Source: a phage | Length of the DNA: 64,000 nt | Assembly: GCA_011939005.1 (NCBI GenBank) | Contig: GCA_011939005.1_4858.1 | Direction: 5' to 3' (one strand) | Part shown: positions 10,871 through 42,261 of the stretch, piece after piece | Layout of the letters: every line of letters begins with the position of its first letter | Position numbering within the stretch: position 1 is the first letter of the stretch | The notes under the pieces: generated by a model | What the model was told of the DNA's origin: nothing | Database searches by the model: none | Seen by the model: the letters and a program-made list of their open reading frames with translations, nothing else | Translations under genes and position numbers: made by a program

Positions 10871-10965
10871 GACGGACTGCCTACGGGCGGGTAGTCCGTA
10901 GGTAAACCGCCCTTCCGTTATTGGGAGGGCGGTCTCCGTTTTATTACAGATTAGGAGTGTTTGCA
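10871..10965 (+). other. structured intergenic region with nested hairpins between fiber genes
   Basis: Inverted repeats CCTACGG/CCGTAGG and CCGCCC(T)TCC/GGAGGGCGG followed by T-rich tract. Confidence 0.4.
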
Positions 10966-23447: not shown

Positions 23448-23571
23448 GGTTGTTTCCTTATAGTAGGTTTGTGGTGCATACCAAATCATTCTAAAAAATA
23501 CATAGTGGGGTTAATATGACAGTAAAGTTGGCTGTTAAACGAGAAAGTTTTTACCACTGAAAGGATACCTT

Positions 23572-25643: not shown

Positions 25644-26297
25644 TCATTTACACATCCCCAACTTAGCCACGTAGTCTGGCATTTCCTGATAGACGCGGCC
25701 ATACCAGCCGTAAGTAAACTCTTCGTTATCCTCACGCCCTTCACTGATTTCCGTGTAGTACGCTACCTGATGACAGGTTAAAGCGAATATCAGTCGATTT
25801 AGGCCCTCTTCCCCACGAGCTTTGATAAAGCCTTCTAACGCTGTTAACGTACGTGGTCCAATACCACCGTCGGCATCGATATCGTCGTACAGTTTACCCT
25901 GACGGTTTAATACGTTCAGAATGCGCTGCAGGGACTTGATACAGTTGCCACGACCTGCGTTGATGCCGAAATCAAACATCCGGTCAGCTAGCAGGACATT
26001 CATTTTCATAATCTGGTCTAAGCGCATCCGCTGCCACCAGAGCTTGTTGTAAATGTCTAACGCGGTTTCTAGGCTCAGGTCACGCATATCCCCTTTATAG
26101 CCATATTCACGCGCCGTGAGTTCGGTGACACCACGGTTCGTTGCTTTACCCAAATCTTTCGGGTTATTAACGTAACCGGCTTCGATGTTTACTTTGGCAC
26201 GAATAATGCCCTCTTTACTCCAACGATCGACCACGATAACCTCCTGCGTTGATAGGGTCATAAAAAGAAAGCCTCTTCCCCGTGGGGAAGAGGGCAT
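25644..26297 (-). CDS. endolysin: GH108-type muramidase with C-terminal peptidoglycan-binding domain
   Basis: EAGYVNNPKD.G..T..GVT...YGY.GDM motif (GH108) and DADGGIGPRTLTAL (PG_binding_3-like). Start ambiguous: M1 at 26297 or M13 at 26261, which sits immediately after a hairpin. Confidence 0.8.
   Translation of the reverse strand: MPSSPRGRGFLFMTLSTQEVIVVDRWSKEGIIRAKVNIEAGYVNNPKDLGKATNRGVTELTAREYGYKGDMRDLSLETALDIYNKLWWQRMRLDQIMKMNVLLADRMFDFGINAGRGNCIKSLQRILNVLNRQGKLYDDIDADGGIGPRTLTALEGFIKARGEEGLNRLIFALTCHQVAYYTEISEGREDNEEFTYGWYGRVYQEMPDYVAKLGMCK
26268..26296 (-). terminator. hairpin terminator after the 722-aa gene, overlapping the possible 5' end of the endolysin gene
   Basis: Stem CCTCTTCCCC / GGGGAAGAGG, T-run on minus strand. 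Confidence 0.5.
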
Positions 26298-26348
26298 GGG
26301 TTATTCTCAGGCTTTAACCCCGTCAAGTTCCTCGTTAAATTATGATAA

Positions 26349-28517
26349 CTATTTCTTTGGCCGCACCCACGGTTTAGGGGCGGATTTGGTATACGGATTA
26401 CATTCCATCATCTTACCGAGGTAGGCATCGTAATACACGAAGCGATCGACATAGAACTTCTCCACCGGTGCACTACTGGTAGCCGATTTCACCCGGTTGC
26501 GTTCCACAGCGAGGCTAATCGCCCCGGTAGGTGCGGGTTTTAGCGTGAACATTACCGCGCGGTTGTAACGCCAAGTGTCGTGCACAATATCAAACTCCGA
26601 TACACAGTGTGCCATGATACCAAACAATGTGGTGGCTGGTAAGTTGGCTACAGCATCGCCGTATGGTGTTCCCACCAAACCGCCGGGTATGTTTTGCTTT
26701 TTGAACAGCGTACCTGAAATAATCGTACCTAAGAACTCCACAACTACAGGCTTGGTTGGGTCGGTGACTTTATCTATCCCATCCGCACTGGCCAATCGGT
26801 TGGCATCTAAATCTGCGAGGTAGTCGAGGAACTCTTGGTACTCGTCGGTAACATTCGGTTTCACCGTTCCGACGGATACCCAGTTGACGATACTTTTATT
26901 CCCACCGACAGCTTCGCCTGCCATCCCAGGGCGAGTCCATGACATCCCGTCTTCACGACCGTAGACATAGACTGGCGAGCCGGTAGCCGGGGTGTTCCAT
27001 TGCTCGAACGCTGTATATCGTCCCGGCTGGCCCCAATCCCCACCCGGACCGCCATAGTAGCGACTCTGGTAGCCGGTAAATTGCGCGACGACTAACTGGG
27101 TAGCACCGCCTTTGTCACGGGACCCAGCTAAGCCGTTACGGTTATTGGTGCCGCTGGGCACCGCCGCGCCTGGCCCGAGAGGCGCACCACCAGCTCCACC
27201 GATCTTGGTGGTGCTAAACGCATAGTAGTCGCCCCCACCCCCACCACCGGCGATGGTGCCGTAGTTTTCGATGGTGACTTTGCCACGGAAGGTATCGCTA
27301 ATGTGGATTGCGTCAGCTCCGTCCGCTGATGTGTTCGCAGGCATAGAGTAGACCACACCCGAACCACCACGACCAAGAATGGTTCCCCGGTTAACGAAGT
27401 TCCAAACCACCTCGCCAATTTGCGGCAATTCGTCGATAACGAACGTCGGTTTCAGGTTGCTGTCGCGATAAACGAAAGCCCCCGCATCTACGGTCACGTT
27501 AACAAACAAACGCCCGCACGCCGCATGGTTGGTCAACGTTGTGGCCCAGTAGCTGTCCGAAAGTTGCGACGTAGTTGTGTAGTTCAGGTTAAGGGTTTGC
27601 TCGTTATCTTGATAGCGTGCTACATTCAACGTGGCACTGCCCATGACTTTGTACGAACCCTCTACGGGTGCCAATTGCACTTGTCTCGGCCACTCGCCTG
27701 CCAGGTTCTCTACAGGAGCAATTTCGTTTACATCAAAAACACTCCGAATGCCGAGTGTCTCGATGGCCAGAGCATCGTGCAGGCTACCGGTGAAATCATC
27801 CGGGACGTATGTGGTTTTGCCTGCATATGTCTCGAGTTTGTTACGTGAGAAGAACACATACTTCGTTCCAAACATCCCGCTCCCCGGTCTAGCGGTCAAA
27901 GCTACGACGCTGTTATACGCAGAGGTTTGGCCTATATCCTCCGGGGACATCGGGGCGCTGACATCGACTTTATCAAGATCCACGATCCGTTTGGTTGCAT
28001 TAGAGTAGAAGTTAATCCACTGCTGCTTATTCGCAGCCTTTAGCGTGAAAATGATATTGGTAACAGTGTAGACAGTGTTGATATCCACGTCACCGTTTAT
28101 CACATCTAGCGTTTGGCTGCCGTACCAGATAAGACTTGTCTGTTTCGCCTGGAACGTGATGCGCGCAGCATTGTTTGTCCAAGTGATGGGCAGGTCTTCA
28201 AAGTCGTCGGTTAAAAAGGTAATCCCTAGTAGAGTGTCTAAATGCGGCAACAGTTCGTGGATGGACGCACAAGTGGGAATGGCATCCAACTTAACCTTGG
28301 CGAAATAATCAGCAATATTTTGCTTCGTGACTTGGGCCGTAATTTGACCGTAACTAGAATACCCCGGACCCCCTGTCAGTGTGACGTCTAGGGTTTTTTC
28401 GTCACGATGCGCCACGGACACCAGGCGTACGTTAGCGGGGTCTACTGCTTTGGCGACCGCGTTTTTACGGTTGAGCGACCGAATCACGGTCGCCACTAAA
28501 TCGGGAGTGTATGACAT
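26349..28517 (-). CDS. fiber-like protein (722 aa) with Gly-rich region; N-domain paralog family
   Basis: RBS AAGG; N-terminal module resembles the array genes; poly-Gly/GGxGG segment. Confidence 0.6.
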   Translation of the reverse strand: MSYTPDLVATVIRSLNRKNAVAKAVDPANVRLVSVAHRDEKTLDVTLTGGPGYSSYGQITAQVTKQNIADYFAKVKLDAIPTCASIHELLPHLDTLLGITFLTDDFEDLPITWTNNAARITFQAKQTSLIWYGSQTLDVINGDVDINTVYTVTNIIFTLKAANKQQWINFYSNATKRIVDLDKVDVSAPMSPEDIGQTSAYNSVVALTARPGSGMFGTKYVFFSRNKLETYAGKTTYVPDDFTGSLHDALAIETLGIRSVFDVNEIAPVENLAGEWPRQVQLAPVEGSYKVMGSATLNVARYQDNEQTLNLNYTTTSQLSDSYWATTLTNHAACGRLFVNVTVDAGAFVYRDSNLKPTFVIDELPQIGEVVWNFVNRGTILGRGGSGVVYSMPANTSADGADAIHISDTFRGKVTIENYGTIAGGGGGGDYYAFSTTKIGGAGGAPLGPGAAVPSGTNNRNGLAGSRDKGGATQLVVAQFTGYQSRYYGGPGGDWGQPGRYTAFEQWNTPATGSPVYVYGREDGMSWTRPGMAGEAVGGNKSIVNWVSVGTVKPNVTDEYQEFLDYLADLDANRLASADGIDKVTDPTKPVVVEFLGTIISGTLFKKQNIPGGLVGTPYGDAVANLPATTLFGIMAHCVSEFDIVHDTWRYNRAVMFTLKPAPTGAISLAVERNRVKSATSSAPVEKFYVDRFVYYDAYLGKMMECNPYTKSAPKPWVRPKK

Positions 28518-28531
28518 GGTGACACCTTAGT

Positions 28532-29851
28532 CTATAGCGCTGGATACCAAGGGACCGGGGCAGTTTTGCTATATGGACTGTAGACCATATAGCCGCCTTT
28601 GCTTGGGTCGTAATAGATGAAATAGTTACAGTAATTCGAGTAGAGGCTCGTCATTTGTTTGGATTGGTATCCGTTACGGTATAGTCCCTGGTAAGTAGTA
28701 GCTGATGTCGTGGTGGTGTAAGCAGTGTGGTACAGTACCCGACGTCGGTTAGCAATACTTTCTTGGAACATCTCTTCGGTCGGAAACGCGTGTTGCATCA
28801 GCCGTCGAATACTCCCGGTACAGTATCGAGTGCCATACGGGGAACCCGTTAAATCATCCGCAGTTTCAGGCGATTCTGCCCGAGTCAACACGTACTCGTT
28901 TTGATACAACGTGACGCTCATCGAATTTGGGCTGGTTTCCCGGAAACTCATGTAACGCGCATAACGTTCGACGTCCTCTTCCTGCGCCAAATAGGCCACG
29001 TTATTTTTCGGACCAAAGTGCAAGAAGAACGGACGGCGGAGATTACCCATATCCTCAGGTGGCGTCAACTTCACGCAGTAATTGTACTCCCCACGCATAT
29101 CAGGGTCTAAGCCTGGGTTGTTATTGCGTGTAGCGACATACCCATAGAGGTCATACGGGTTATCAGTAGCAGCATTACCGATAGTGAACGGGATGCCCGA
29201 CCATGCCGACAGCGCCGCGATGAACTGGGTCATGTACGAGTTACTGTTTAGTCGCAGCGGGGTACCCATCTGGATATTGATTATCTGTTGGGTGTACATG
29301 CTCCAGTCGAGTCGATAGACCGTGCTGTAAACATCCATGGGTTCCCAAGCTCCGGTTTCGGTGGTGTGGTACAAGTCGGCAAAGCTGGGCTCTTCACGAA
29401 TAAAGCTAATAGGAATGTGACCCGTGAATGCGGGGTTATCCGATTTAATCGCCACCGTCCGATCGCCCGTTGCCACAGTGATCATTGCAAACTGGCTGTC
29501 AGGATACGTTAAATCGTCAGCAGTAAGCACCAGCCCACAAGCTGCGGAAATCCGGTCGATGATGTCGCGGTAGACCGTCGCCCGATAAGGTACTTTAACC
29601 GGTACGCTGACGCCTTTAAAATACTGCGAAAGGTTTAAGCGGTCGTAGTAGATGTCCATCTTACCGCTGTAACCACCACCCTGTAATCCGTTTACCACGA
29701 TACGGCTGTTGCGACCATCGCGCAAGGCATTGGTTAAAGGACCTTGTAATAACGCCACGTTGGTTGCGTTGAGCGGTTTCTTGAGCTGCGGGTTATCACG
29801 ATTAATCTGATCCCAAACCAGTTGCATGACAGGTTTGTTATAGTTGATCAT
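28532..29851 (-). CDS. fiber-like protein (439 aa), N-domain paralog
   Basis: Starts MINYNKP..L..QINRDNP, VYYDRLNL motif shared by family. Confidence 0.6.
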   Translation of the reverse strand: MINYNKPVMQLVWDQINRDNPQLKKPLNATNVALLQGPLTNALRDGRNSRIVVNGLQGGGYSGKMDIYYDRLNLSQYFKGVSVPVKVPYRATVYRDIIDRISAACGLVLTADDLTYPDSQFAMITVATGDRTVAIKSDNPAFTGHIPISFIREEPSFADLYHTTETGAWEPMDVYSTVYRLDWSMYTQQIINIQMGTPLRLNSNSYMTQFIAALSAWSGIPFTIGNAATDNPYDLYGYVATRNNNPGLDPDMRGEYNYCVKLTPPEDMGNLRRPFFLHFGPKNNVAYLAQEEDVERYARYMSFRETSPNSMSVTLYQNEYVLTRAESPETADDLTGSPYGTRYCTGSIRRLMQHAFPTEEMFQESIANRRRVLYHTAYTTTTSATTYQGLYRNGYQSKQMTSLYSNYCNYFIYYDPSKGGYMVYSPYSKTAPVPWYPAL

Positions 29852-29861
29852 TGCAACGTCC

Positions 29862-29895
29862 TAAAAAAGAAAATAGGCCCCGAAGGGCCTATTTT
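29862..29895 (-). terminator. rho-independent terminator (UUCG-type loop)
   Basis: Stem AGGCCC / GGGCCT around a 4-nt loop, T-run on minus strand. Confidence 0.6.
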
Positions 29896-30086
29896 TAGCT
29901 GTTATGGTGAAGTACGCTATCCCTTTAACTCCAGCTGCTTCGACGTCAGTTTGGATAACCACGCGGCCGTACGCTTTATTAGCGAAATTGAATCAGCGCT
30001 GATTCGACCTGCGAGTTCAGGGTTATCCCTTACGACTTGTTGGCAGAGCAGTTCCAGTGCGCTATACAATCCCATGAAGTCTCCTG

Positions 30087-30986
30087 TTAAGGCAGAACGA
30101 GTTCAAGTACCGCGATAGAACGTATTGTATTGGTTTCGTATCTACCGTACGACGGCGACTCTGGGTAGGGTGGACGGTTGTACCACTGATTGTAAATGTC
30201 AGACATAGCCGCAAAGAATGCAGATTGTTGGGCAGTAGTCGAATCGATTGAACCGACCGGAAGGTCGTCAAAGCGCGGCAACTGCCCACTGTAGTTGTAC
30301 AGGCGCGCGAAAGTGTTAAACCACTCACCGTCGAGATACAACTCACTGTTACCGCTTCTAACGTTAGTCGTCCAGAATCTGTAGTCGAACAAATACGGCA
30401 AGCGCACCACGTATTCGTAACCGTTCTTCGCCACCGTGCGGCGTTGGTTACGTGCAGTGGCCCAGCTCGGTACAAATCCATTGCCATCCTGGCCGTACAT
30501 CAGCCCCTGGTTATAAATGAACTGCGGGCTAGCGTATATTATCGAGTTATCGGACATAAACAGAATACGGTTTTTGTAAATGAATTTATGCCAGGCACCA
30601 ACGGCGGAACTGAACATATTCACCACGAGGCTGTTCAGTTCCGCGTTAGTGAATAACTCTGCTGGCGTTACTGTTCCAAAGTATCCAGCGTGCCAGTCGC
30701 CGTATAACAGCTTCTGGGGGCCAGGCCCGGTGTCTAAAAAGAACCCTTGGGCGGTAGGGGTGTTGAAGACACGCTCACCGTCTTTAACCGCAGCTATCCA
30801 ATAACGGTAAGTGGTGTTGTTTTCCACAGCGTTGTCTTCGTACGATGTAGCGTCACCCGGAAGGGTTGCCAGAGGCGTTCCCGGTGCATTAACATCAATG
30901 GTGGCGTTGCCCGGCGTCTTGCGATAGATTTCAATGTTATCGAGCGCCTGTGGCTTCCGTTGTGCAAAGTTTAATGTAATAGGCAT
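30087..30986 (-). CDS. fiber-like protein (about 300 aa): FN3-like N-module plus GPGP module
   Basis: Internal ATG overlaps stop of upstream gene; TTYRYW..AVKDGER and DTGPGPQ motifs. Confidence 0.55.
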   Translation of the reverse strand: MPITLNFAQRKPQALDNIEIYRKTPGNATIDVNAPGTPLATLPGDATSYEDNAVENNTTYRYWIAAVKDGERVFNTPTAQGFFLDTGPGPQKLLYGDWHAGYFGTVTPAELFTNAELNSLVVNMFSSAVGAWHKFIYKNRILFMSDNSIIYASPQFIYNQGLMYGQDGNGFVPSWATARNQRRTVAKNGYEYVVRLPYLFDYRFWTTNVRSGNSELYLDGEWFNTFARLYNYSGQLPRFDDLPVGSIDSTTAQQSAFFAAMSDIYNQWYNRPPYPESPSYGRYETNTIRSIAVLELVLP

Positions 30987-30988
30987 GA

Positions 30989-31978
30989 TTAATCCTCGAT
31001 AAGCTCGATTACTGGAATCCAAATACCGCCCACGGTCGCACCAGGGACATGTTGTATACGCTGGAGGTTATCCACGGTATCAGTGGAATCCGTCGTCGCT
31101 GTTCCGCGCGTCAGCCCCAACTTACGGTCTGGGTCAAACTCCTGACAATGCACCCCACGGCCACTCACCACCGATCCATTTCCGAATATGCTGATGTTCG
31201 ACCGCGTTAACAGGGACATCACTTTTTTCTTTGCTGGGAACCAGGTACTTATCCCATAGATGAGTCGGTTGTATTCGCTATCGGCAGTATACGGTGACAC
31301 GTCATGGATTTTTCCGTCCCACTGTGCATCGAGCGCCATGACCGGACTTTCACTGTCGTGTGTTAAACCGCGCAGCAATCGCATCCGATAGCGGTCACCC
31401 AACCACGTAAACTCCCCAGACTGGTCAACGTCAGGTAAATCACCATGACCGCCTTCCGGACCAGGTCCCGCCACACCGTACAGCAAACCCGCGTTATAAA
31501 TCGCATCACGGCTATACAGCGTGTTGCCGTTCACACGAAGACCACTAAGCAGATACAGAATTTTACCGTCTAGCTGGAACTTAAACAAGTACAGCTTAAC
31601 AGTTGGGTCAATTCCAGAAAGGGCCACAAACCCTGGCGGATAATCACCCACGCTAGGCAATTCATCGTACGCCACATTCCCGTAATACGCAAAGCGGTCA
31701 TCACCGTACTGTGGAGTCACGATGCCGATACCGCGACGGTTCTGAATCAGAATTGATTTCTGCGGACTGAACAGTGTCCGGCTTCCCACTGTCACGGTGG
31801 TCATGTAGTAATACGTTGTCCCCAGTATCGCTGTTCGGTCAGTATACTCAGTTTCCCCGTTAGTGAACGTTGCCAGAGGTTCAGGTAATGCCGTACGCAC
31901 CAGAGGTTTGGTGTCGCGGTACAGCTTCACGGTCGAAGCCCCAGGGTTATTGTTCGTCCAACGAATTGTAAAAGCCAT
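30989..31978 (-). CDS. fiber-like protein (329 aa): FN3-like N-module plus GPGPEGGHG module
   Basis: Starts MAFTIRW; paralog of 34434-35432. Confidence 0.55.
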   Translation of the reverse strand: MAFTIRWTNNNPGASTVKLYRDTKPLVRTALPEPLATFTNGETEYTDRTAILGTTYYYMTTVTVGSRTLFSPQKSILIQNRRGIGIVTPQYGDDRFAYYGNVAYDELPSVGDYPPGFVALSGIDPTVKLYLFKFQLDGKILYLLSGLRVNGNTLYSRDAIYNAGLLYGVAGPGPEGGHGDLPDVDQSGEFTWLGDRYRMRLLRGLTHDSESPVMALDAQWDGKIHDVSPYTADSEYNRLIYGISTWFPAKKKVMSLLTRSNISIFGNGSVVSGRGVHCQEFDPDRKLGLTRGTATTDSTDTVDNLQRIQHVPGATVGGIWIPVIELIED

Positions 31979-31990
31979 TGTCGTTACCTC

Positions 31991-33487
31991 TTATTGGAAT
32001 CCATCCAACTCACCGTTAGTATCGCCCAGAGTAATTTTTGAAGGTTGGGCGATTTGGTCAGTCGTGAGAATAATCGGTCTAATCTTAACGCTAGCCATGC
32101 CTGTTACCGCGACGGAATATGCACGTTCATCATTGTCCGTCGTGGCAAGCAGAGGACGTGGTGAGTCTGATGACGCTTCCCGTACCCAGGCAGGGGTGGC
32201 AGTTTCGGTGTTGTCGGTGTTGAAAACTAACGGACGTGGATTCGCTGCAGCGGAGGTTTCCGTAATCGGCACCACACGAAGCGATTCATTTTGGTCGATG
32301 TCCGTCAGAGTAACCACGGACGGTGCCCATGTTAGTTCTGCACCTTCGTCAATCAACGGCACAGGTTCATTGGCAACATCAATCATCTCCAAGATTGGCC
32401 AAAAGCCAGAAGAGGTGTAGATGTAGGTGTATGAACGATAGCTCCCACTGATAGACTGGTAATACGCTTGGTCGGCACCGAACTGGTGTCGTAACCACAC
32501 GTAATCCAGGAAGTTAGCATCAGTCGTGCTAAGAGTTCCCCATTCCCCATATACGTTCACCGACCCCAATTTGCTGGTCAGTGACAGGATAGAGGTGATT
32601 GACGGCGGTTTACTCCAATCAGGCGCGGCGGCGTTCTCGGTGTAATACGGGATAGACATTCTGAAATAATGCGTTCCTTCATCATCCCGTTTTACCATGT
32701 ATTTCAACTGTTCAACATCGACAGGTGTGTAAGTCGACTTCGGGCGAGGTCCTGCGTCTCCGGAATCAAATATTGCACCCTTGTTGTACAGGTCTGCCCA
32801 GGTAACGTTGCAAATCGCACGGGTCGGAACAAACACTACCGCCCCATTCAGAAAGAATTTGAGCCACTTGATAGCGTAGCGGTTAGGCCAGTTGGTGCCG
32901 TTATAGAGGGCATACACCATTTCATCAGATGTGAATAACTCTTCCGCGCTTACCAGCCCAAAAAATCCGTATAACTCATTACCGGCCATTAATCCTTTTG
33001 GCCCAGGGCCCGACTTCGGATACATCGCAATCGGTTCGTAAACATAGGTCATCTTGCATGACCCGGTATAGCACAAGGAGTTAGCGTGCGCCGTCAGAGT
33101 TACAGTTTCTGGCGTAGCGTATTTCATTAATGCAACGTTTGGACTGGTGATGTCACTCGCGGTTAAGTTCAACCCGTTCAATTCATTGAACGCCGGTAAC
33201 GCTTCCGCATGGGTTTGTGCGCTACGTGGAATACTCACCATCTTCGGGCCAGACTTGAACAGACTGGCCAGATTCAACCGGTCGTAATAGACCGTTATTT
33301 CCCCAGCAAATCCTTTACCGGGTTTACCTACCAACGTAATCTGTGTGTTTCGTCCGTTAACGTTTTTCGCAACAGGAACACCCCTGACCCCAATGGAGTC
33401 AGCGGTGATTTTTCCTGCTAAACCGGGATTGTCACGCACAATTTGTTGGCAGAGCAGTTCCATTGAAGGTTCTGTATACAACCCCAT
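31991..33487 (-). CDS. fiber-like protein (498 aa): N-domain, GPGP module, C-terminal NGELDGF
   Basis: RBS GGAG; VYYDRLNL, SGPGPKGL, ends TNGELDGFQ. Confidence 0.6.
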   Translation of the reverse strand: MGLYTEPSMELLCQQIVRDNPGLAGKITADSIGVRGVPVAKNVNGRNTQITLVGKPGKGFAGEITVYYDRLNLASLFKSGPKMVSIPRSAQTHAEALPAFNELNGLNLTASDITSPNVALMKYATPETVTLTAHANSLCYTGSCKMTYVYEPIAMYPKSGPGPKGLMAGNELYGFFGLVSAEELFTSDEMVYALYNGTNWPNRYAIKWLKFFLNGAVVFVPTRAICNVTWADLYNKGAIFDSGDAGPRPKSTYTPVDVEQLKYMVKRDDEGTHYFRMSIPYYTENAAAPDWSKPPSITSILSLTSKLGSVNVYGEWGTLSTTDANFLDYVWLRHQFGADQAYYQSISGSYRSYTYIYTSSGFWPILEMIDVANEPVPLIDEGAELTWAPSVVTLTDIDQNESLRVVPITETSAAANPRPLVFNTDNTETATPAWVREASSDSPRPLLATTDNDERAYSVAVTGMASVKIRPIILTTDQIAQPSKITLGDTNGELDGFQ

Positions 33488-33500
33488 GGCTTTTACTCCG

Positions 33501-34424
33501 TTACGGTAAGACTAATTCAAAAGCAAAGAATATCGTGGCCGAGTTCCCGACACCTGCGGTGTTACTAATCACCATAGGCACGGTGCCATACGCATAAGCG
33601 AATATGTTGTTGCTCCACAAAGGAGCTAATACAGCGGCACCTGACTCATTCGGCTGCACAGTCGCGCCTTGTCTTGCAAGTGAGTCAATCGCACCAAGAC
33701 CGAGGGCTGCGAACTGTGCACCGACAGGATACAAACGGCCCATTGTGTTTCGCCATTCACCGTTGTTGTAATCCTGTCCTGAGAGAACAGCGTCGTACGG
33801 GACTGCGTAAGGTAATCGGATACGGTACGTACGACCATCCTTCGTGACCTTACAATCTTGTTTAGTCGCCGTGGCTCCCTGCGGAACAATACTTCCGACA
33901 TCATCGGTCCCGTACATCATACCGTACTGATACGCCATTTGTACCGAGTTGGTTTTCGAATGCATCGTCGCTGGGAAGAAGACAATTCTCCCACGGAAAA
34001 TAAACTTGTGCCATTCCTGAGGGTCGTAGACAAACATGTTTCCCTGCTGTGCAGTCAACATAAGCTTCAGCTCGGCGGTATTAAAGAACTCGGTATTCGG
34101 TACTGTACCGAAATAACCTGAAGCCCAGTCACCACGCAAAATAGTTTGCGGACCCGGCCCGGTGTCCGGATAGAATCCTTGCGTAATCGGATTGCCGATA
34201 AGTCGTTCACTGTCCTTCACAGCAGCTACCCAATAACGATAGGTTGTATTCTTCGTCAGAGTATCGATATTATCTACGAACTCTACCGCGTTGCCCGATA
34301 AAGTTGCGTGGGGTGTGCCTGGATTGTAAACGTCGATTGTTGCGTTCCAACCTTCCTTGCGGTAGATTTCAATCGCGGTAAGACCTTTGCTGGCTTGGGA
34401 CGGCCAGCTTAACCGTATAGTCAT
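33501..34424 (-). CDS. fiber-like protein (307 aa): FN3-like N-module plus GPGP module
   Basis: Starts MTIRLSW; TTYRYWVAAVKDSER; DTGPGPQ. Confidence 0.55.
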   Translation of the reverse strand: MTIRLSWPSQASKGLTAIEIYRKEGWNATIDVYNPGTPHATLSGNAVEFVDNIDTLTKNTTYRYWVAAVKDSERLIGNPITQGFYPDTGPGPQTILRGDWASGYFGTVPNTEFFNTAELKLMLTAQQGNMFVYDPQEWHKFIFRGRIVFFPATMHSKTNSVQMAYQYGMMYGTDDVGSIVPQGATATKQDCKVTKDGRTYRIRLPYAVPYDAVLSGQDYNNGEWRNTMGRLYPVGAQFAALGLGAIDSLARQGATVQPNESGAAVLAPLWSNNIFAYAYGTVPMVISNTAGVGNSATIFFAFELVLP

Positions 34425-34433
34425 GACTGCCCC

Positions 34434-35432
34434 TTACTCGACCAGTTCAAAGATAGGGTAGTAACGCCCTTTCGTGGTGGGTGATAAATAGTTTATACGC
34501 TGAATCGTGGATACGGGTGTTCCACCGGCATTGTTAAAAATGCCACGATGGACCACACGGTCTTCCGCGGTGTCGTGTTCCATACAGAGAACTCCGGCAC
34601 CGAAATACGTTGCCGAGGTTCCCAAATTAGCCTGCCCCAGATAAGTATAACTGTTCGCTGCCCAGTTAGCCCAACGCTGTTTCCTCGGCACCTCGTTAAC
34701 CATCGTGTAAAGTAAATCGTTATACTCACACGGGTTGGTTAGAGAAGCGATTTCATCGTGGGTTTTCCCATTGTAGTCAGCTACGAAAGGATACGCAGGA
34801 GACTCGCTAGACGTCGTCAGGCCGCGAGGAAGACGCATAATGTACGTATCCCCTTTGTGGACTATCTTAGCGTCTTGTGGAGTGGCCGGTAGCGTTCCAT
34901 GGCCGTTCTCTGGGCCAGCATCGCCCGTACCATAGACTAAACCAGCTTGATAGAGGGAAGCCCAGTCCACAGGCGTATTCGGGAACTGCGACGTGTTAGA
35001 TAGCATGTAATAGATCTTCCCGTTTCGGGTAAATTTATACAACGCCACACGATCGGTTAACAGGTTAGGGAACATCGCCAAAAATGCAGGTGGCATTTGC
35101 GACGGAAGCCACTGTTCGTCGTAAGGAACCTCACCCATAAACCCTAAACGGTCGTTGCCGTTTAGAATAGTCATTGGGCCTATCCCGCGTTTTACCTCAA
35201 TGGTATATTTCTGGCTAGACGACGCTACTGTTTTACCGTTGGCGGTTACCGTCAGAAGGTAATAATAGGTTGCGCCTGGTGTGGCGGTGGTATCACGCCA
35301 TTCTGTCTCGCCGTTTGAGAGCGTTGCAATCGGTTCAGGCAAAGCGCTTGGTGTGATATCTTTAACATCACGGTAGATTTTTACTACCGTAGAGATTACG
35401 TTTGGATTTTTCCAACGCAAAGTAAAAGACAT
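34434..35432 (-). CDS. fiber-like protein (332 aa): FN3-like N-module plus GPENGHG module
   Basis: Starts MSFTLRW; paralog of 30989-31978. Confidence 0.55.
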   Translation of the reverse strand: MSFTLRWKNPNVISTVVKIYRDVKDITPSALPEPIATLSNGETEWRDTTATPGATYYYLLTVTANGKTVASSSQKYTIEVKRGIGPMTILNGNDRLGFMGEVPYDEQWLPSQMPPAFLAMFPNLLTDRVALYKFTRNGKIYYMLSNTSQFPNTPVDWASLYQAGLVYGTGDAGPENGHGTLPATPQDAKIVHKGDTYIMRLPRGLTTSSESPAYPFVADYNGKTHDEIASLTNPCEYNDLLYTMVNEVPRKQRWANWAANSYTYLGQANLGTSATYFGAGVLCMEHDTAEDRVVHRGIFNNAGGTPVSTIQRINYLSPTTKGRYYPIFELVE

Positions 35433-35443
35433 AGATGATACCT

Positions 35444-36934
35444 CTACTTAAAGCCGTCCAGTTCACCGTTAAGAGACGTTAACGTTGTCTTGTCAGGGGG
35501 CGTATACATTTCAGCGGTAGCCGCAATAGGTTGAAAATCGACAGTCTTCGGCAGCATTAATGCAGGCGGATGCAGTGCGAAACTGTTTTCTGAAGTAACG
35601 GCCACAGGTTGAAAATCGACAGTCTTCGGCAGCATTAATGCAGGCGGATGCAGTGCGAAACTGTTTTCTGAAGTAACAACTACCGGTTCGAAATCGGTAG
35701 TATCTGGATTACCGAGCACCAACGGCTTGAGACTAAACGTGTTTTCTGCGGACACGCTGCACGGTTGGAGGCTGTAATCTACCGCGCCGTGGATATCTTC
35801 TAAGCCCAAGGTAACCGTGGACTTATCCACCAACTCCAGCACCGGGAACCAGTAGTAGTTGCCCGCACTCGATGATTTTTCTAAGTTTGTCCAACTTGCT
35901 CCAGACAACGTCGCCATGCGATGATTGGCGACGTTGGTGTTCAGTGTATCTTTCAATAAACAGAACAGCGTCCAGTAACTGTTAATCGGTTTGTCCCACG
36001 TTCCATTATACAGAAAGTTGAACATCTCAAACTCACTACCTGCTAACTCAGCGGCAGTTGGGGTGCCGCTGACGTATGGGTCTTTCCCGGCACTAGGTAG
36101 ACGAACGCGGAAGTAAAACCTTTTGTTGTCTGCGCCTGTAAAGCTAATGATGCGTCCCTGGTTAACGGGCGTCGCCGCAGGGTATTTACCATTATCATCT
36201 GTTCCGTAAACGAGTCCGTTTGTATATAACGTATTCCAGGAGATGGAGCTAGCGACAGGACTGATCGGAAGGTAAATAACCCTACCCTGGTAAAAGAACT
36301 TGTACCAACCTTCGGCACCAGAATGTACCGGTGGTAACGCACCGGCCGATATAGTGGCATTAAGAAGTTGAGAGTGTGTAAACAACTCTGCAATTGTGGT
36401 TGTTCCGAAATAACCCGCGATAGTGTTACCTTGCAGCAACGTTTTAGGGCCAGGTCCAGAATCGGGGTAAATTGCACCGCTCGGGACGGTATAACGTATC
36501 GTTAAGCTGCCTATAAACGCAGGGCAATTACCTGAGATATTTAATTTCAACGTCTGCGGCGAAGCGCTCGGTTTAGGTAAACTTGCGTCAGGTGACTGCA
36601 AATCAGAAGCAACTAATGTAAGCCCCAATGCGTCGTTTATTGCAGGTAGCGCGTCTCGTACCGTTAAGACTGTATCTTTGATAGCCACAGTCGGCACAAA
36701 ATTAAATAAAGTGGCCAGGTTAATCCGGTCGTAGTACACGGTAACATTACCTTGTACACCTGTCCCTGGATACCCGGTGAAAACAGCTTTGGTGTTACGT
36801 TGGTTTAACGTAACTGAAGTTGGGCCGCTGGTTAAAGCAGCGATAGCCGGTGTCAGCTTAACAACTAAATCAGGGTTATCCCGATTGACTTGGTCGTATA
36901 CAAGCAGTGCCGACTCCTTCGAGTAAAATAGCAT
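35444..36934 (-). CDS. fiber-like protein (496 aa): N-domain, GPGP module, internal 26-aa tandem repeats, C-terminal NGELDGF
   Basis: VYYDRINL; DSGPGPK; repeated KTVDFQPVAVTSENSFALHPPALMLP; ends NGELDGFK. Confidence 0.6.
   Translation of the reverse strand: MLFYSKESALLVYDQVNRDNPDLVVKLTPAIAALTSGPTSVTLNQRNTKAVFTGYPGTGVQGNVTVYYDRINLATLFNFVPTVAIKDTVLTVRDALPAINDALGLTLVASDLQSPDASLPKPSASPQTLKLNISGNCPAFIGSLTIRYTVPSGAIYPDSGPGPKTLLQGNTIAGYFGTTTIAELFTHSQLLNATISAGALPPVHSGAEGWYKFFYQGRVIYLPISPVASSISWNTLYTNGLVYGTDDNGKYPAATPVNQGRIISFTGADNKRFYFRVRLPSAGKDPYVSGTPTAAELAGSEFEMFNFLYNGTWDKPINSYWTLFCLLKDTLNTNVANHRMATLSGASWTNLEKSSSAGNYYWFPVLELVDKSTVTLGLEDIHGAVDYSLQPCSVSAENTFSLKPLVLGNPDTTDFEPVVVTSENSFALHPPALMLPKTVDFQPVAVTSENSFALHPPALMLPKTVDFQPIAATAEMYTPPDKTTLTSLNGELDGFK
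35524..35684 (-). repeat. 78-bp period tandem direct repeat inside the 496-aa gene
   Basis: Two copies identical over 71 nt (GGTTGAAAATCGACAGTCTTCGGCAGCATTAATGCAGGCGGATGCAGTGCGAAACTGTTTTCTGAAGTAAC), flanked by degenerate copies. Confidence 0.85.
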
Positions 36935-36981: not shown

Positions 36982-37809
36982 TTAGCTGTTATAGTGGTAG
37001 TACGCCACGCCTTTCACGCCTTCCTCATCGATGCCCGTTTGGACAACCACGCGGTCGTACGATTTGTTAGCGAACTGAGCGGTGGATGTCGGCACATCCT
37101 GAACGGTGTTGCTGTTCAGTGGCCCCGCGTAGTTCGGAATACCCAGGTCATCCAACACCTTACGCAATCCAGCCCACTGCGGTAGGCCAGAAGCATCTAC
37201 TGTCAGTAGGTTTTTATACGCGGTAAAGTCAATACCATACGTCAACAAATCAATACACTTCTTACCGAGAGACGGTGAAATAGGCTCTTGAATCGCATTC
37301 AAGACATCCGATTTCACCGAAGTGTCTAGTACCGGTAAACCACGGTTATAACGCAACGTCGCAGAACCGATATAAGCCGGAGATGTCGATAGCGCTACGA
37401 TGTTCTGTGTATTGGTGTAATTTGGGGTATTGGGACCCGCCAGTGGGAGGTTATAGATATCGATTGCAGAGAAGTTTACTCCGTAAGTATCCAAGAGCAC
37501 CGAAAAGGCTGAATGGAGGTTGGGCGCGTCAAACGTGACGAACTGCGCCTGGACAGAAGGACCCCACGGCAATAACCGCGCTAAGTTCACACGGTCGTAG
37601 TAAACGGTGATTGCGTCTCGAAATCCGGAACCCTGAATACCGCGCAAGCGTGCCGACGTATTGCGGTTGTTGGAAGCTGCATTAACGGGAACCTGTGTCA
37701 CTTTCTCCACGTAGCAGTTTGCCGGCGACGCTTTAATAGGTAGGTTTGGGTTATCCCGGTTAATGAGGTCAAAGACCAACTCGTTTGACGGCTTAGCATA
37801 GTTGATCAT
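36982..37809 (-). CDS. fiber-like protein (about 275 aa), N-domain paralog
   Basis: ATG at second codon of tracked ORF with GAGG RBS; starts MINYAKPSNELVFDLINRDNP. Confidence 0.55.
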   Translation of the reverse strand: MINYAKPSNELVFDLINRDNPNLPIKASPANCYVEKVTQVPVNAASNNRNTSARLRGIQGSGFRDAITVYYDRVNLARLLPWGPSVQAQFVTFDAPNLHSAFSVLLDTYGVNFSAIDIYNLPLAGPNTPNYTNTQNIVALSTSPAYIGSATLRYNRGLPVLDTSVKSDVLNAIQEPISPSLGKKCIDLLTYGIDFTAYKNLLTVDASGLPQWAGLRKVLDDLGIPNYAGPLNSNTVQDVPTSTAQFANKSYDRVVVQTGIDEEGVKGVAYYHYNS

Positions 37810-37812
37810 CAA

Positions 37813-38700
37813 TTATACCTCGCTTGGATCGTCCAGATCGTTGAACTGGAGATACAACGTTCCGACGATGGTGGTACAGGTAACAGGCAGTTTCAACGCC
37901 AGCACATACTTGTACTTCGCGTTTGTCGGCATTGCAACAGGGTCATTCAGACCAACACTGATAACCTCCGCGCCCGCCAAACCGTAGGAAGCGGAAGTGG
38001 TCGCTACCCATGCAGTACCCGTGATATCTTTCAGCAGGTTAACCATATCCGTTAACGGCTGTCCGGACAGAATACCCGGCTTGTATGCCAGCAGAGCATC
38101 TCGGTACTTAGTGAAGTTGTACGGGTAGGAATAAACCTCTGCAATGACCGCAGTAACATTTTCGGAACCCATCTGACCGTTCGGGTATTTCAGACCGGTC
38201 AGGACGTTAGTGGTGACTGCAGAGACTAACGACTCATCACCTTTCACGACTTTAAATGTCGCCTGTCCAACCCAACCGATAGACTCTGGATGTGCAACAA
38301 CACGCACAGTACCTTCGGTCTTATCACCGTTCCATTCGATATCTGCGTCCTGCAGGTCAGCTTCTTCCAGAACAAAACCGTAACGTTGGTTCAGTCCAGG
38401 AATGGCCGCATACAAGGTTTCGTTGGATGGGCCGATCGCCAACGTGTCACCGATCAGCACTAACAAGTCTTCGACTTTCATGCGGTTGTAGAAGACATTT
38501 TTCTTACCCGACCAGGTAGAGCCCGTTACCCCATCTGCCGTAATTTTAATTTGCGTGTTACGGTTAGTCAGCGTTTCCTTCTCCGTACCACGGATGTCCT
38601 TTGGCGAGGACCAGATGATGTCAGTCATCTTAACAGCAAGCGAGTTCTGTGCGTTCACTGCTGCCAACAGGACGTCTTTAGAAGGTTGATAAATAGCCAT
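37813..38700 (-). CDS. fiber-like protein (295 aa), N-domain paralog
   Basis: Contiguous with neighbours, no intergenic gap; family N-terminus. Confidence 0.55.
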   Translation of the reverse strand: MAIYQPSKDVLLAAVNAQNSLAVKMTDIIWSSPKDIRGTEKETLTNRNTQIKITADGVTGSTWSGKKNVFYNRMKVEDLLVLIGDTLAIGPSNETLYAAIPGLNQRYGFVLEEADLQDADIEWNGDKTEGTVRVVAHPESIGWVGQATFKVVKGDESLVSAVTTNVLTGLKYPNGQMGSENVTAVIAEVYSYPYNFTKYRDALLAYKPGILSGQPLTDMVNLLKDITGTAWVATTSASYGLAGAEVISVGLNDPVAMPTNAKYKYVLALKLPVTCTTIVGTLYLQFNDLDDPSEV

Positions 38701-38710
38701 TCGCTAATTC

Positions 38711-39550
38711 CTAGTTGTTGTAGTGCAACATACACTCGCCGATTACTTTCGGGTCGTTCTGAATGCCGGTAATCAGCAATACGTTATCGTACGCTTTATT
38801 GGCGGTCGCCAACTCACTCGTTTTGTAGCGGGTAATTGTGCAGTTCGTCGGATCAAACGACGGTACCCCACGTGCGACCAATGTGGCCATCAGATTGGAC
38901 GTGTAACCCAAATCAAAGTTACTTCCTACATCCATTCGCCCGTTCTTAAACGAGGCCATAACCTGCACTTCATCGGTAAAGTCTTCCCCGTACGTCAAGA
39001 AGCCCATGTATTTCTTACCAGTGCTTGCTGCTGCAGGGTGGTTCAAAGCCAACAAGATGTCGTTTACCACGAGGTCTTCGAGGCTATTCTTACCCCGGAT
39101 AGACATAAAGGTGATGCTGCCAGTGTATTGGATACAGCTAGCGTTAATACGCATCGTGTTGTTTACGTTCAGATAAACGTATTGTTCTGGGATATCATCT
39201 GCAACCAGGTTTAATCCATAACGACCGTTCAGGTTCTGCGCAAACGCAGTACGTTTCGACTCCACGTTCAACCAACCGTAGGCATTCGGTGCAGTTACCT
39301 GAGGTGTCATGTTCTTAAATAAGTCGTTCAGCGACAAGCGCTTATAACGGAACGTCTGGGGACCGATATAGCCACGACCTTGACGACCACGAATGATAAT
39401 CTCAGTATTGGCACCGCTTGCTGTCGGTGTGATTGCTTTCGGCGTACCGATGATAGCATTGTCTAAACCCATCGGTAGCACAGCATCCGGGTTTTCGGCA
39501 TTAATCGCATCGTACAGATATTGTCGCTGAGACAGACTATATAAAGCCAT
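38711..39550 (-). CDS. fiber-like protein (about 279 aa), N-domain paralog
   Basis: Internal ATG with RBS GAGGAGG; ends LHYNN. Confidence 0.55.
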   Translation of the reverse strand: MALYSLSQRQYLYDAINAENPDAVLPMGLDNAIIGTPKAITPTASGANTEIIIRGRQGRGYIGPQTFRYKRLSLNDLFKNMTPQVTAPNAYGWLNVESKRTAFAQNLNGRYGLNLVADDIPEQYVYLNVNNTMRINASCIQYTGSITFMSIRGKNSLEDLVVNDILLALNHPAAASTGKKYMGFLTYGEDFTDEVQVMASFKNGRMDVGSNFDLGYTSNLMATLVARGVPSFDPTNCTITRYKTSELATANKAYDNVLLITGIQNDPKVIGECMLHYNN

Positions 39551-39569
39551 AATAGCCTCCTCGGCCAAA

Positions 39570-39612
39570 AAAGAAAGGAGTAGCCGGGAGGAGGATTTCC
39601 TCCTCCCAGCGA
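39570..39612 (-). terminator. hairpin, possible intra-operon terminator/attenuator
   Basis: Stem GGGAGGAGG / CCTCCTCCC with AAAT loop; T-run follows after a short spacer on minus strand. Confidence 0.45.
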
Positions 39613-39619
39613 GGCCTAA

Positions 39620-40531
39620 TTAGGCATTAAAGTGCAGGTACATGATGCCCTGGAAGTTGGTGCACAGAGTGTCATCCAGCTGCAGCAGCAGAACCTGGTT
39701 GTAAGCAGTGTTTGCACCTTCAACCGGTTTCTTAGGTTCGTCGCCTGAAGCAGTGCCATCGTCAGTAGTAGAACCAACGTACAACACGTTAGCACCTTTC
39801 AGGTTATAATCCGCAGGCTCATCAGATGCAACCCACAGTTCCGGCACAACTTTATTCAGCTCAACCGGGAATGCAGAGTCGCCAGCGATAACACCTTTCG
39901 CCTGTACTTTCAGGAATGGTGCGATTGCTGTGCAGTCTACACCGTAAGAGTAGATGTAACCCTGACCCTTCGCTTCGCTTGGACCATCTGGGTAAACCAG
40001 GCCGTCGAGCTTGGTTTGTGTTACCACCAGACTCAGACGTTCACCAACCTGAGGCTTAGCACCGATTTTAACCGGGATGCTGCCCAGATAAGCGTAGCAG
40101 TCTTCTTTGAAGGTAATGACGTGGTCAACCGGTGCTGGGTCCGGATCGTTCGGGTTAGTCAGCGGCGGGTTGGTATTTTCCGGAATAGCCGCCGGAACAA
40201 TATCATCTTCGGTCAGTTTCAGACCGTATTGGGTGTTCAGGGTCGTCAGCAGGTCGGTGGTGGTTTTCGGCAATTTAACGTCGAGGTATGCCGTTACATT
40301 ACGGAACAGCGCACCGCCTTCCAGGCGATTATAAGTCACGTCCTGAGTACCGATGTACCCGGAGTTCTTTTTCGCAGTCAGGGTCATGCTGGTATTGCGA
40401 TCAGCACCTTCATCGCTAATAGGGGTCGGTGTGCCGAGCGTTATTTTAGAAAGTTCCAGTTCTGCGTCTGGGTTTTTCTCATTAATAAAATCCAGAACCA
40501 GCTTATCTGACGTTTTGTTTAAAGGTTTCAT
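39620..40531 (-). CDS. fiber-like protein (303 aa), N-domain paralog
   Basis: RBS AAGGAAG; ends LHFNA. Confidence 0.55.
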   Translation of the reverse strand: MKPLNKTSDKLVLDFINEKNPDAELELSKITLGTPTPISDEGADRNTSMTLTAKKNSGYIGTQDVTYNRLEGGALFRNVTAYLDVKLPKTTTDLLTTLNTQYGLKLTEDDIVPAAIPENTNPPLTNPNDPDPAPVDHVITFKEDCYAYLGSIPVKIGAKPQVGERLSLVVTQTKLDGLVYPDGPSEAKGQGYIYSYGVDCTAIAPFLKVQAKGVIAGDSAFPVELNKVVPELWVASDEPADYNLKGANVLYVGSTTDDGTASGDEPKKPVEGANTAYNQVLLLQLDDTLCTNFQGIMYLHFNA

Positions 40532-40552
40532 TCTTACTTCCTTTACTCAGGA

Positions 40553-41398
40553 TTAATCAGGGTCGTTGTAATGCAAATACAAACGCCCGCCAAAATTCAG
40601 ACAGTACAACGACAGCTCCACAATCAGCACGTTGTCGACTGCTGGGTTGGTTGGTAATTCCGCTTTGTTACGCCCGTTATAGACGACGACGGCTTCACGA
40701 AGGTTAAAGTCGATTGGGTTACGGTACGTTGTCCAGTTATCACCGGTGACCGTTTTGAGAATCTGCGCCAGACGTTCTGCGGTTATCGCAGCACCTAGTC
40801 GTTGAAATTCCTCCGCGAAATTATCAAAGCGCCAGGGATACGAATAAACTGCACCTTGACCGACCTTGATGTTAAAATACGGATACTCGTAAGGCATCAC
40901 TGTTAACGGTTCGAAGTTTGCAGGAAGCAACGCATCGCCTGGTAACAGCTGTACCTGTTGTTGCCCTATCCAACCTAAAGAAGAGGGCGTGGCAATCAGA
41001 TCCACACGCCATGTCTTCCTGTCGATTTCGGTATTCACCACATCTGCAGGTTTAAGGCTGAGACCGTAATACTGGTTAATTAACCCGACCACGTCATGCA
41101 TCTGGTAAACAGCATCGAGACGTGCAGGAACACGTAAAGGTTGAATCCCGTCTGGGTCGGTAAACATGTCTGCGAAGTCAACACGATCGTAATAGACGGT
41201 AGTGGCACCGATAGCATTAGCCGTGGCCAATGCCTGAATGCGCACCATCGCGTTGTGACCGTTAGCTTTTGCCAAGTCTTCGTCAGACGTTGGAATCGCA
41301 GGGACACCAAAAACAACATCCTCGACTTTTAAATCGAGATTGTTTTCGACGTTAACTTCCGCGATAATAATCTTTTCAGCTGTGGCTAAAAGTGGCAT
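40553..41398 (-). CDS. fiber-like protein (281 aa), N-domain paralog
   Basis: RBS AAGGA; ends LHYNDPD. Confidence 0.55.
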   Translation of the reverse strand: MPLLATAEKIIIAEVNVENNLDLKVEDVVFGVPAIPTSDEDLAKANGHNAMVRIQALATANAIGATTVYYDRVDFADMFTDPDGIQPLRVPARLDAVYQMHDVVGLINQYYGLSLKPADVVNTEIDRKTWRVDLIATPSSLGWIGQQQVQLLPGDALLPANFEPLTVMPYEYPYFNIKVGQGAVYSYPWRFDNFAEEFQRLGAAITAERLAQILKTVTGDNWTTYRNPIDFNLREAVVVYNGRNKAELPTNPAVDNVLIVELSLYCLNFGGRLYLHYNDPD

Positions 41399-41408
41399 GT
41401 CAAAATCC

Positions 41409-42251
41409 TTATATCGGGAGATAATGAAGGATGAGATTACCGGCGTAGTTGCTGTCCGCAGCTAGCTTGATAATCGCCACACGCTGATAATCGGGGTTGT
41501 AACTATCGTTCGGTGTGACTGAAGTTATCCCCATAAATCGTGCACCTTGGAGTGCAATTTGTTCAGGTTGCGCATTCGCCCCCGTCACATATGCAAACTT
41601 TAATGGCACCACTTCATTCAACAACTCAACATCCGCTGCAGTGATTGCACGGTTGTAAACCCAATCGGTGGTGAACTGTTTTTGCAGTTCAGTCCAATCG
41701 TAACCATACGCCACATACTCGGCCTGTGGTTTACTAGCAACCACGAACGGTGCGATTATTGCGCTGAGGTCAACATCCGTCACCACATCCGCCAAGTTCG
41801 GGAAGAACTTCGCAAAGCGTAAACGGAAACCACCTTGCCAGGCCAAGCAACCGGGCTTAATAGTCACATCGATTAACCAGCTTTCTCCCAAATCTTTTAC
41901 TGACTGGTCAACGATATCGTCGGCAACTAAAGACAAGCCGTATTTCGCATTCAGAAACGGCAACAACTCAGAGAGTTTATTTACCGGGTCGGCAACGACT
42001 ACCGGTATTACGTTCCTGAACAGAATTTCCATTTCGATACGGTCGTATTCGAGCGTAACGTTGCCTTTGTAGCCCTTGCCGTTCAACCCGTATAAGAGCA
42101 CACGTGTATTCCGGTCAGCGCCAGGCGTTTGGACAGACTCAGGGAAGCCAGTTGCAACCTGCTCCCATGTGAGTGGATTGGCCGTTAATCCGTTCTGTCG
42201 GTTAATAGCATCTAACAACATCTCTTTCGAGGGCTTATCGTAAATAGACAC
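41409..42251 (-). CDS. fiber-like protein (280 aa), N-domain paralog
   Basis: Apparent GTG start with AGGAGG RBS overlapping upstream stop. Confidence 0.55.
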   Translation of the reverse strand: MSIYDKPSKEMLLDAINRQNGLTANPLTWEQVATGFPESVQTPGADRNTRVLLYGLNGKGYKGNVTLEYDRIEMEILFRNVIPVVVADPVNKLSELLPFLNAKYGLSLVADDIVDQSVKDLGESWLIDVTIKPGCLAWQGGFRLRFAKFFPNLADVVTDVDLSAIIAPFVVASKPQAEYVAYGYDWTELQKQFTTDWVYNRAITAADVELLNEVVPLKFAYVTGANAQPEQIALQGARFMGITSVTPNDSYNPDYQRVAIIKLAADSNYAGNLILHYLPI

Positions 42252-42261
42252 CTATACCCTC

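Follow-up and report, generated by a model that had tools for sequence, protein, structure and literature searches.

The 64,000-nucleotide (nt) stretch of phage DNA analysed here (GenBank assembly GCA_011939005.1, contig GCA_011939005.1_4858.1), referred to below as the window, carries at positions 30087–36934 an array of six open reading frames (ORFs), all present and all on the minus strand, whose products combine one shared module with two types of N-terminal domain. The segment 30000–37000 is 97% identical in nucleotide sequence to the Salmonella jumbo phage SPN3US (NC_027402, JN641803; genus Seoulvirus), and the window is collinear with the SPN3US array at 95.8–98.6% nucleotide identity, its genes being orthologous to SPN3US genes of the gp138–154 series. 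Amino-acid identity to the SPN3US orthologues is 90.6–99.6% per gene, or 91–99% for the six array genes against gp145–150. We name the six A1, B1, C1, A2, B2 and C2, which by locus tags are gp145–gp150 in that order. The array and the scar next to it comprise (aa, amino acids):

A1, 35444–36934, minus strand: 496 aa, gp145 orthologue; DUF7941 N-domain at residues 1–150 (nt 36485–36934), shared module at ~152–372 (nt 35819–36481) and a predicted disordered, repeat-rich tail at 373–496 ending in ...LNGELDGFK.

B1, 34434–35432, minus strand: 332 aa, gp146 orthologue, matching the PHROG family phrog_1062 at 1.5e-57; FN3 domain at residues 1–78 (nt 35199–35432) and a diverged shared module at 79–332 (nt 34437–35198), with RGIGP at the GPGP site and a GPENGHG loop downstream.

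C1, 33501–34424, minus strand: 307 aa, gp147 orthologue, matching phrog_1062 (7.8e-58) and phrog_3589 (7.9e-26); FN3 domain at residues 1–84 (nt 34173–34424) and shared module at 85–307 (nt 33504–34172).

A2, 31991–33487, minus strand: 498 aa, gp148 orthologue, matching PF25613 (105.3 bits) and phrog_3589 (1.6e-166); DUF7941 N-domain at residues 1–150 (nt 33038–33487), shared module at ~152–370 (nt 32378–33034) and a tail ending in ...TNGELDGFQ.

B2, 30989–31978, minus strand: 329 aa, gp149 orthologue; FN3 domain at residues 1–78 and shared module at 79–329 (nt 30992–31744).

C2, 30087–30986, minus strand: 299 aa from the ATG, gp150 orthologue; FN3 domain at residues 1–82 and shared module at 83–299 (nt 30090–30740).

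Third-cassette scar, 29852–30086, minus strand: pseudogene made up of an A-type 5′ stub, a DUF7941 3′ end and a terminator.

For C2 we use the ATG of the SPN3US annotation, the TTG listed at 31022 being a mechanical ORF start.

What the six products have in common is a module of ~220 aa that runs from (D/K)(S/T)GPGP to PVLELV and whose alignments display, in order, the landmarks GYFGxV, WxKFxxxGK, SWxxLYxxGxxYG, YxxRLP, GEW and a terminal WxPVLELV strand. It is fronted by the N-terminal half of DUF7941 in A1 and A2 and by an FN3 domain in B1, C1, B2 and C2; the ...PV(L/I/F)EL(V/I) strand closes the protein in B and C and is followed in A by a tail of ~120 aa. BLASTP connects the two architectures directly, with C2 matching A1 at 35% identity over 158 aa (E 2.6e-19), C1 matching A1 (E 2.7e-19) and A2 (E 4.7e-9), and B1 matching A2 (E 1.1e-8). 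PHROG families cross over likewise, residues 152–376 of A1 matching the FN3-type family phrog_1062 at 1.3e-32 and residues 82–208 of C1 matching the A-type family phrog_3589 at 7.9e-26. A preliminary description of this DNA had claimed that a GPGP-motif domain is shared between the two N-terminal types, and BLASTP, PHROG and the alignments bear out that sharing far beyond chance, but what is shared is ~220 aa long rather than a short motif. The [ST]GPGP string itself occurs in the 64-kb window only in the minus-strand genes A1, A2, C1 and C2, apart from one plus-strand match outside genes. Nor is GPE(N/G)GHG, which the description took for a variant of GPGP in two FN3-type genes, located at that position: the B genes read RGIGP or RGIGI at the GPGP site, and GPE(N/G)GHG aligns ~100 residues downstream, with a G-x-x-P loop that follows the (L/V)YGxD motif in A, B and C alike. 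The B genes carry a diverged copy of the module, not a motif variant.

The array consists of a three-gene cassette, A-B-C, in two tandem copies, and the alternation of N-terminal types along it is simply the gene order of the cassette, in which A is DUF7941-N plus module plus tail, and B and C are each FN3 plus module. There are three A-B-C copies in SPN3US (gp145–153), as opposed to the two of the window phage, three also in Erwinia phage Huxley (Machinavirus) and two in Kwan (Wellingtonvirus), and in both Huxley and Kwan the cassettes come after seven full-length DUF7941 genes. The two-cassette layout recurs in phages SPLA3, EC001 and Lh1B and in two metagenomic jumbo-phage contigs; A-B-C is intact even in the one of these two contigs in which gp154- and gp155-like genes stand before the cassettes.

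Compared with SPN3US, the window lacks 3.3 kb containing gp151–153, exactly one cassette. Window positions 29986–35629 align with positions 8987–14633 of the SPN3US locus and positions 26000–29944 with 1695–5640, so that gp151–153 are absent from the window. The scar at 29852–30086 marks the loss of this third cassette. Its 5′ part retains ~32 codons from the start of an A-type gene (MGLYSALELLCQQVVRDNPELAGRISADSIS, ~29986–30081), with the ribosome-binding site and ATG kept and a 52-aa ORF; its 3′ part holds the last ~26 codons, out of frame, of a full-length DUF7941 gene (...KAYGRVVIQTDVEAAGVKGIAYFTIT, ~29911–29986), after which comes a hairpin terminator (29870–29895). In SPN3US, too, the third cassette (gp153) is followed by such a scar, though a different and shorter one. 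An apparent extra 1.9 kb in SaP7 and other phages was discarded as an artefact of joined BLAST pieces, SaP7 having the normal three-cassette layout.

The shared module, FN3 domain and DUF7941 N-domain were each aligned separately and given a bootstrapped neighbour-joining tree of their own, with sequences taken from the window, from copy 3 of SPN3US and from Huxley and Kwan; PhiPA3 outgroups were added to the module and FN3 trees, and the N-domain tree was rooted on the other DUF7941 genes of the window. In the module tree, B forms a clade with 95% and core C a clade with 91% bootstrap support, and no module type is nested inside another. In both parts of the protein, the genes of cassette 1 cluster at 90–100% bootstrap with orthologues that come from two further genera (module and N-part, respectively: A1, 100% and 90%; B1, 98% and 90%; C1, 100% and 98%). 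Copy 2 of SPN3US pairs with copy 3 as its sister, at 92% for the N-domain of A, at 98% for the module and 72% for the FN3 domain of B, and at 77% for the module of C. Mantel tests of N-domain against module distances gave r = 0.68 (p 0.008) for A and r = 0.85 (p 0.0002) for B and C combined, with 0.89 for B and 0.51 for C, and counts of informative sites yielded the same plurality split in five of the six N-part versus module comparisons. In a larger module tree of 196 sequences, N-terminal architecture changes 17 times (Fitch), against 73.5 expected and a minimum of 68 when labels were permuted. There, the array A modules lie in pure DUF7941 clades, those of C in a pure FN3 clade of 52 and those of B in a pure FN3 clade of 21, and the nearest neighbours of modules share their N-terminal architecture.

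The earlier suggestion that N- and C-terminal modules had recombined within the array is supported in part. Two unrelated N-terminal domains precede the same module, which requires one or more domain fusions. Recombination within the array fails on the comparison that the description itself had proposed, the N- and C-module trees agreeing with each other, as do the distance matrices. The A, B and C architectures arose by domain fusions that are old and rare, and the pattern of the array is one of whole-cassette block duplication. Copies 1 and 2 had already diverged when Seoulvirus, Machinavirus and Wellingtonvirus split, and the array contracts by loss of whole cassettes, copy 3 being gone here with its scar left behind.

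That the N- and C-modules were instead exchanged among the array genes, making some of these recent chimeras of their neighbours, is in our estimation very improbable. Such exchange would fit the occurrence of one module behind two unrelated N-domains, and paralogues have left recombination scars (illegitimate or homologous), as where the A-type 5′ stub is joined to a DUF7941 3′ end. It would also fit C2, the exception among the site counts, whose FN3 domain is slightly closer to C1 (54% vs 47%) and whose module is closer to C3 (47% vs 38%): the FN3 sites lean to C1 (18:12:6) against 24:42:24 for the module, a heterogeneity with p = 0.04 before correction for six tests. This signal is lost on correction, however, and the C2 FN3 domain is not nested in the C1 orthologue clade. 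C2 provides the only hint of mosaicism in the array, and a weak one. Apart from the agreement of trees and distance matrices, and a module phylogeny that follows N-terminal type over all 196 sequences, the modules of paralogues are only 27–47% identical and have no nucleotide-level similarity. Nucleotide repeats between paralogues do not go beyond 38-nt motif patches at 61–76% identity, which rules out recent gene conversion between the cassettes.

Variation among close relatives is concentrated in two of the six modules. Over twelve genes compared with SPN3US, the rate of synonymous substitution (dS) is similar (0.02–0.11), whereas that of nonsynonymous substitution (dN) is about tenfold higher in B2 (0.051) and C2 (0.043), with dN/dS of 0.70 and 0.64, respectively, against 0.03–0.24 in the other ten genes. 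All 31 amino-acid changes in B2 are at position 88 or beyond, and all 24 in C2 at position 115 or beyond, 23 of them from position 171 onwards in the distal half of the module; none is in the FN3 domain of either protein, and neighbouring genes show 1–14 amino-acid changes between near-identical Seoulvirus strains. The same pattern was found against Proteus phage 7 and SaP7, where the corresponding ratio of nonsynonymous to synonymous differences (pN/pS) is 0.74–1.22 in the affected module parts. Synonymous changes in C2 are likewise concentrated distally, and allele exchange between strains may contribute to its distal variation. As judged from these substitutions, the B2 and C2 pattern is consistent with a binding surface that is exposed and that diversifies under pressure from the host, FN3 and DUF7941-N being the conserved parts used for attachment. 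A diversity-generating retroelement was rejected as the cause: unlike systems of the BPP-1 type, the array has no reverse transcriptase or template repeat with it in the 64-kb window, and a search confined to the window found no template-repeat-like duplicate of the variable regions in B1, C1, B2 and C2.

The N-domains of A1 and A2 match Pfam DUF7941 (PF25613) at 110.6 and 105.3 bits, respectively (cut-off 27), over positions 1–153 only of the 276-position profile, and PF25613 has no match in the B and C genes. The predicted fold of this N-domain is like that of phiKZ gp127, an outer peripheral baseplate protein (structure 9xqd). For C1, an AlphaFold2 model was obtained with a predicted local distance difference test (pLDDT) of 92.3 and a predicted template modelling score of 0.88; its N-domain is a seven-strand beta-sandwich whose fold matches solved FN3 domains in a structure search. 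At the sequence level, the FN3 part has a weak profile match to the ‘Fn3-like protein’ 3mpc (E 0.15), and B1, C1, B2 and C2 give no match to the Pfam fn3 family at E ≤ 1. Because FN3 matches swamped the fold searches with C1, A1 was modelled for the fold of the module, and the model has a pLDDT of ~90 over residues 1–375 and below 50 in the tail at 385–496, which is predicted to be disordered. At its C-terminus the tail has a conserved ...TNGELDGF peptide, shared with a paralogue that consists of the N-domain only. Homology of the conserved end of the A-type tail with the linker of full-length DUF7941 proteins was dropped as speculation, a local hidden Markov model (HMM) failing to align them.

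A fold search with the A1 model, which did not report aligned residues, returned a long and consistent series of C-type-lectin folds, among them the Legionella Lcl C-domain (score 6.7), TvpA (6.3) and a Bdellovibrio fibre tip (6.2), together with FGE/PvdO/EgtB, ~30 animal C-type-lectin-like domains, BPP-1 Mtd (4.6), TaqVP and the invasin InvE. These matches probably belong to the shared module, given that DUF7941 proteins yield no confident fold matches according to the authors of the work on phage Goslar (10.64898/2026.04.21.720040). The module is without a Pfam family. Profile and single-sequence searches with it found nothing among PDB sequences (profile, E ≤ 10), and hhalign against the Lcl_C domain that adjoins the module in protein P0237 gave a probability of 0.3%; known C-type-lectin-fold receptor-binding domains (BPP-1 Mtd, Treponema denticola TvpA, Legionella Lcl C-domain, Bdellovibrio fibre tips, invasin/intimin) differ from it in showing no sequence-profile similarity. 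The module is nonetheless widespread, since a profile built from the six window modules and run against 1.84 billion representative proteins (E ≤ 1e-3) found it in 1725 clusters at 50% identity. Elsewhere it is accompanied by FN3, full-length DUF7941, Kelch propellers, Laminin_G_3, Big_6/Big_13, F5/8 type C or Lcl_C, or by no other domain, and some proteins have up to eight tandem copies. These partner domains are typical of adhesins or of carbohydrate binding.

The genes themselves and their paralogue family are already known. In SPN3US, the virion ‘Paralog family B’ comprises gps 83, 138–154, 161 and 237, virion proteins that mass spectrometry detected and PSI-BLAST placed in one group (Ali et al., 2017; PMC5694885). 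The window array consists of these very genes: the seven genes upstream (gp138–144), the six array genes and gp154 are all members of the family. The passages of that paper drawn on here handle the family as a single unexplained head-protein family and contain nothing on domain anatomy, a three-gene cassette, a lectin-like module or variation in copy number. For phage Goslar, DUF7941 proteins have been found to form filaments, some with carbohydrate-binding domains, and purified gp22 self-assembles into filaments, for which head-to-tail polymerisation was proposed, with the disordered linker docking on the next N-domain (10.64898/2026.04.21.720040). Chimallivirus DUF7941 proteins in general (Goslar gp22, gp23, gp86, gp92 and gp161; phiKZ gp126 and gp127) are proposed in the same work to make up a baseplate-anchored ‘fibre cloud’; the principle of a DUF7941 N-domain with host-recognition cargo was described for Goslar in 2026. 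The array, known here from sequence and models, differs from these proteins in that its cargo is a specific ~220-aa, probably lectin-like module, present also in two FN3-fronted genes (per cassette) without DUF7941, and in that the DUF7941 C-domain is absent from its A genes.

The locus as a whole is best explained, and we believe with good probability, as a duplicated cassette of virion proteins bearing a probably lectin-like binding module, brought about by old fusions and block duplication. C-type-lectin-like folds serve ligand binding in phage receptor-binding proteins, invasins and bacterial adhesins. By its modelled fold, the module likely binds a host-surface ligand, probably a glycan. 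In this SPN3US-like (Seoulvirus) jumbo phage, the two tandem A-B-C cassettes would supply virion proteins each displaying one module. A would anchor its binding module to the DUF7941 network of the virion through the N-domain, and might be tethered also through the disordered tail and the conserved C-terminal ...TNGELDGF peptide, while B and C would add two further, faster-evolving binding modules behind a strictly conserved FN3 domain. Since A, B and C are always co-inherited in that order, they probably act together.

Several points weigh against this explanation. The module has no sequence-profile link to Lectin_C, FGE-sulfatase or Lcl_C (21 members, Pfam E ≤ 10). The A-type modules did not resolve as monophyletic in the tree of 27 sequences and split into clades of 30, 5 and 1 in that of 196, and the trees are neighbour-joining trees on short alignments. 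The dN/dS values near 1 could reflect relaxed constraint instead of diversifying selection. Finally, SPN3US proteomics detected all Paralog family B proteins in tailless-mutant particles and on that ground counts them as head proteins (PMC5694885 and PMC10052503). This last observation suggests an alternative in which all six would belong to the head, inside or outside it, and the module would have a structural task, or one after ejection, that has nothing to do with recognising the host. The head assignment conflicts with a location in baseplate filaments, as indicated by phiKZ gp127 in 9xqd and by the Goslar preprint. We nonetheless regard a head role as unlikely, because the DUF7941 N-domain matches in its fold phiKZ gp127, whose modelled place is the outer peripheral baseplate, because FN3 and lectin-like folds, like the domains that accompany the module elsewhere, typify exposed adhesins, because a sibling gene (gp155) has a Gp38 tail-fibre adhesin domain, and because strain changes concentrate in the module; moreover, filaments such as those of Goslar gp22 might, we suggest, co-purify with heads. 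Still harder to credit is a module that is an enzyme, for example a glycoside hydrolase or FGE-like oxidase with polymers of the host surface as its substrate. No Pfam hydrolase or FGE-sulfatase match was found even at E = 10 in 21 module members, and none to a glycoside hydrolase family at E ≤ 1 in the full proteins; the module has no sequence match in the PDB, and most of its invariant positions are glycines. FN3-type cassette genes are labelled ‘glycosyl hydrolase’ in MT679221 (Proteus phage 7) and OQ383623, records in which the basis for the label is absent. The label looks unsupported, since no Pfam hydrolase matches the corresponding window proteins.

The duplicated-cassette explanation can be extended to a bolder proposal, which we put forward with considerable doubt. 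A-B-C would be a self-contained ‘plug-in’ receptor-binding unit with three modules in one hetero-oligomeric head, tethered by A to a DUF7941 filament or baseplate through the N-domain and ...TNGELDGF; cassette number (two or three) would set how many distinct host-surface ligands are recognised, host range would shift by gain, loss and rapid divergence of whole cassettes, and the module would represent a large non-Pfam family common to jumbo-phage virions and bacterial multi-domain adhesins. Like modular tail-fibre and receptor-binding proteins (T4 gp37/gp38, multi-tailspike phages), the locus has one anchor (DUF7941-N) with differing distal domains in neighbouring genes, among them the probably lectin-like module and the Gp38-like adhesin domain, and several paralogous binding proteins per virion; it differs from them in that exchange within the array is not recent and the units gained or lost are complete three-gene cassettes.

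In the literature searched, we did not find descriptions of the cassette as a unit of duplication and loss, of the module as a large non-Pfam lectin-like family or of variability focused on B2 and C2. Giant phages of the phiKZ type are therapeutic candidates whose host recognition is poorly understood, and among the ~20 ‘Paralog B’ virion proteins that lack an explanation in the SPN3US model system, the products of this array make up a large part. Were the duplicated-cassette explanation true, part of Paralog B would be an expandable set of lectin-like binding units on a DUF7941 anchor, and gp146/147, gp149/150 and the two- versus three-cassette phages in existing collections would be candidate determinants of host range. 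The array also bears on the disagreement between head (SPN3US proteomics) and baseplate-filament (phiKZ, Goslar) locations, and its repeat pattern turns out to be ordinary block duplication rather than active module shuffling.

On either side of the array, and within the A1 tail, lie the following features:

Seven full-length DUF7941 paralogues, 36982–43059, minus strand, upstream of the array: 265–303 aa, SPN3US gp138–144.

gp154 gene, 28532–29851, minus strand, downstream of the array: 439 aa; DUF7941 N-domain with a different C-terminal cargo.

gp155 gene, 26349–28517, minus strand: 722 aa; DUF7941 N-domain (PF25613) with a glycine-rich domain like the T4 Gp38 adhesin at residues 373–553.

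Tandem duplication of 78 nt in the A1 tail, 35509–35664, minus strand: 26 codons (...ENSFALHPPALMLPKTVDFQP...), the two copies 91% identical in a repeat search.

According to BLASTP, the upstream paralogues have only the N-domain in common with A1 and A2, and the 276-aa paralogue covers DUF7941 profile positions 1–276 of 276 (291.7 bits). A sigma-70 promoter scan showed no excess over shuffled sequence (17 sites vs 20.7 expected). The gp155 product matches PF05268 at 7e-18 with its Gp38-like domain, and it matches phrog_2056 (tail fiber/host specificity). The final ~105 residues of this product are similar to the C-terminus of the gp154 product (BLASTP E 1.9e-5; both match phrog_6409), a further module common to different architectures. 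SPN3US gp145 is without the 78-nt duplication, being 470 aa long against 496 aa for A1, and shows the corresponding 26-residue gap in tblastn. At 22920–23489, also on the minus strand, a small protein with the DUF7941 N-domain only (local HMM E 4e-12; likely start at the ATG of MAVISAK...) is probably, judged by size and position, the abundant 18.5-kDa gp160 of SPN3US. It ends in ...KTDLSTTNGELDGFV, the same C-terminal peptide as in A1 and A2, which may be a docking element.

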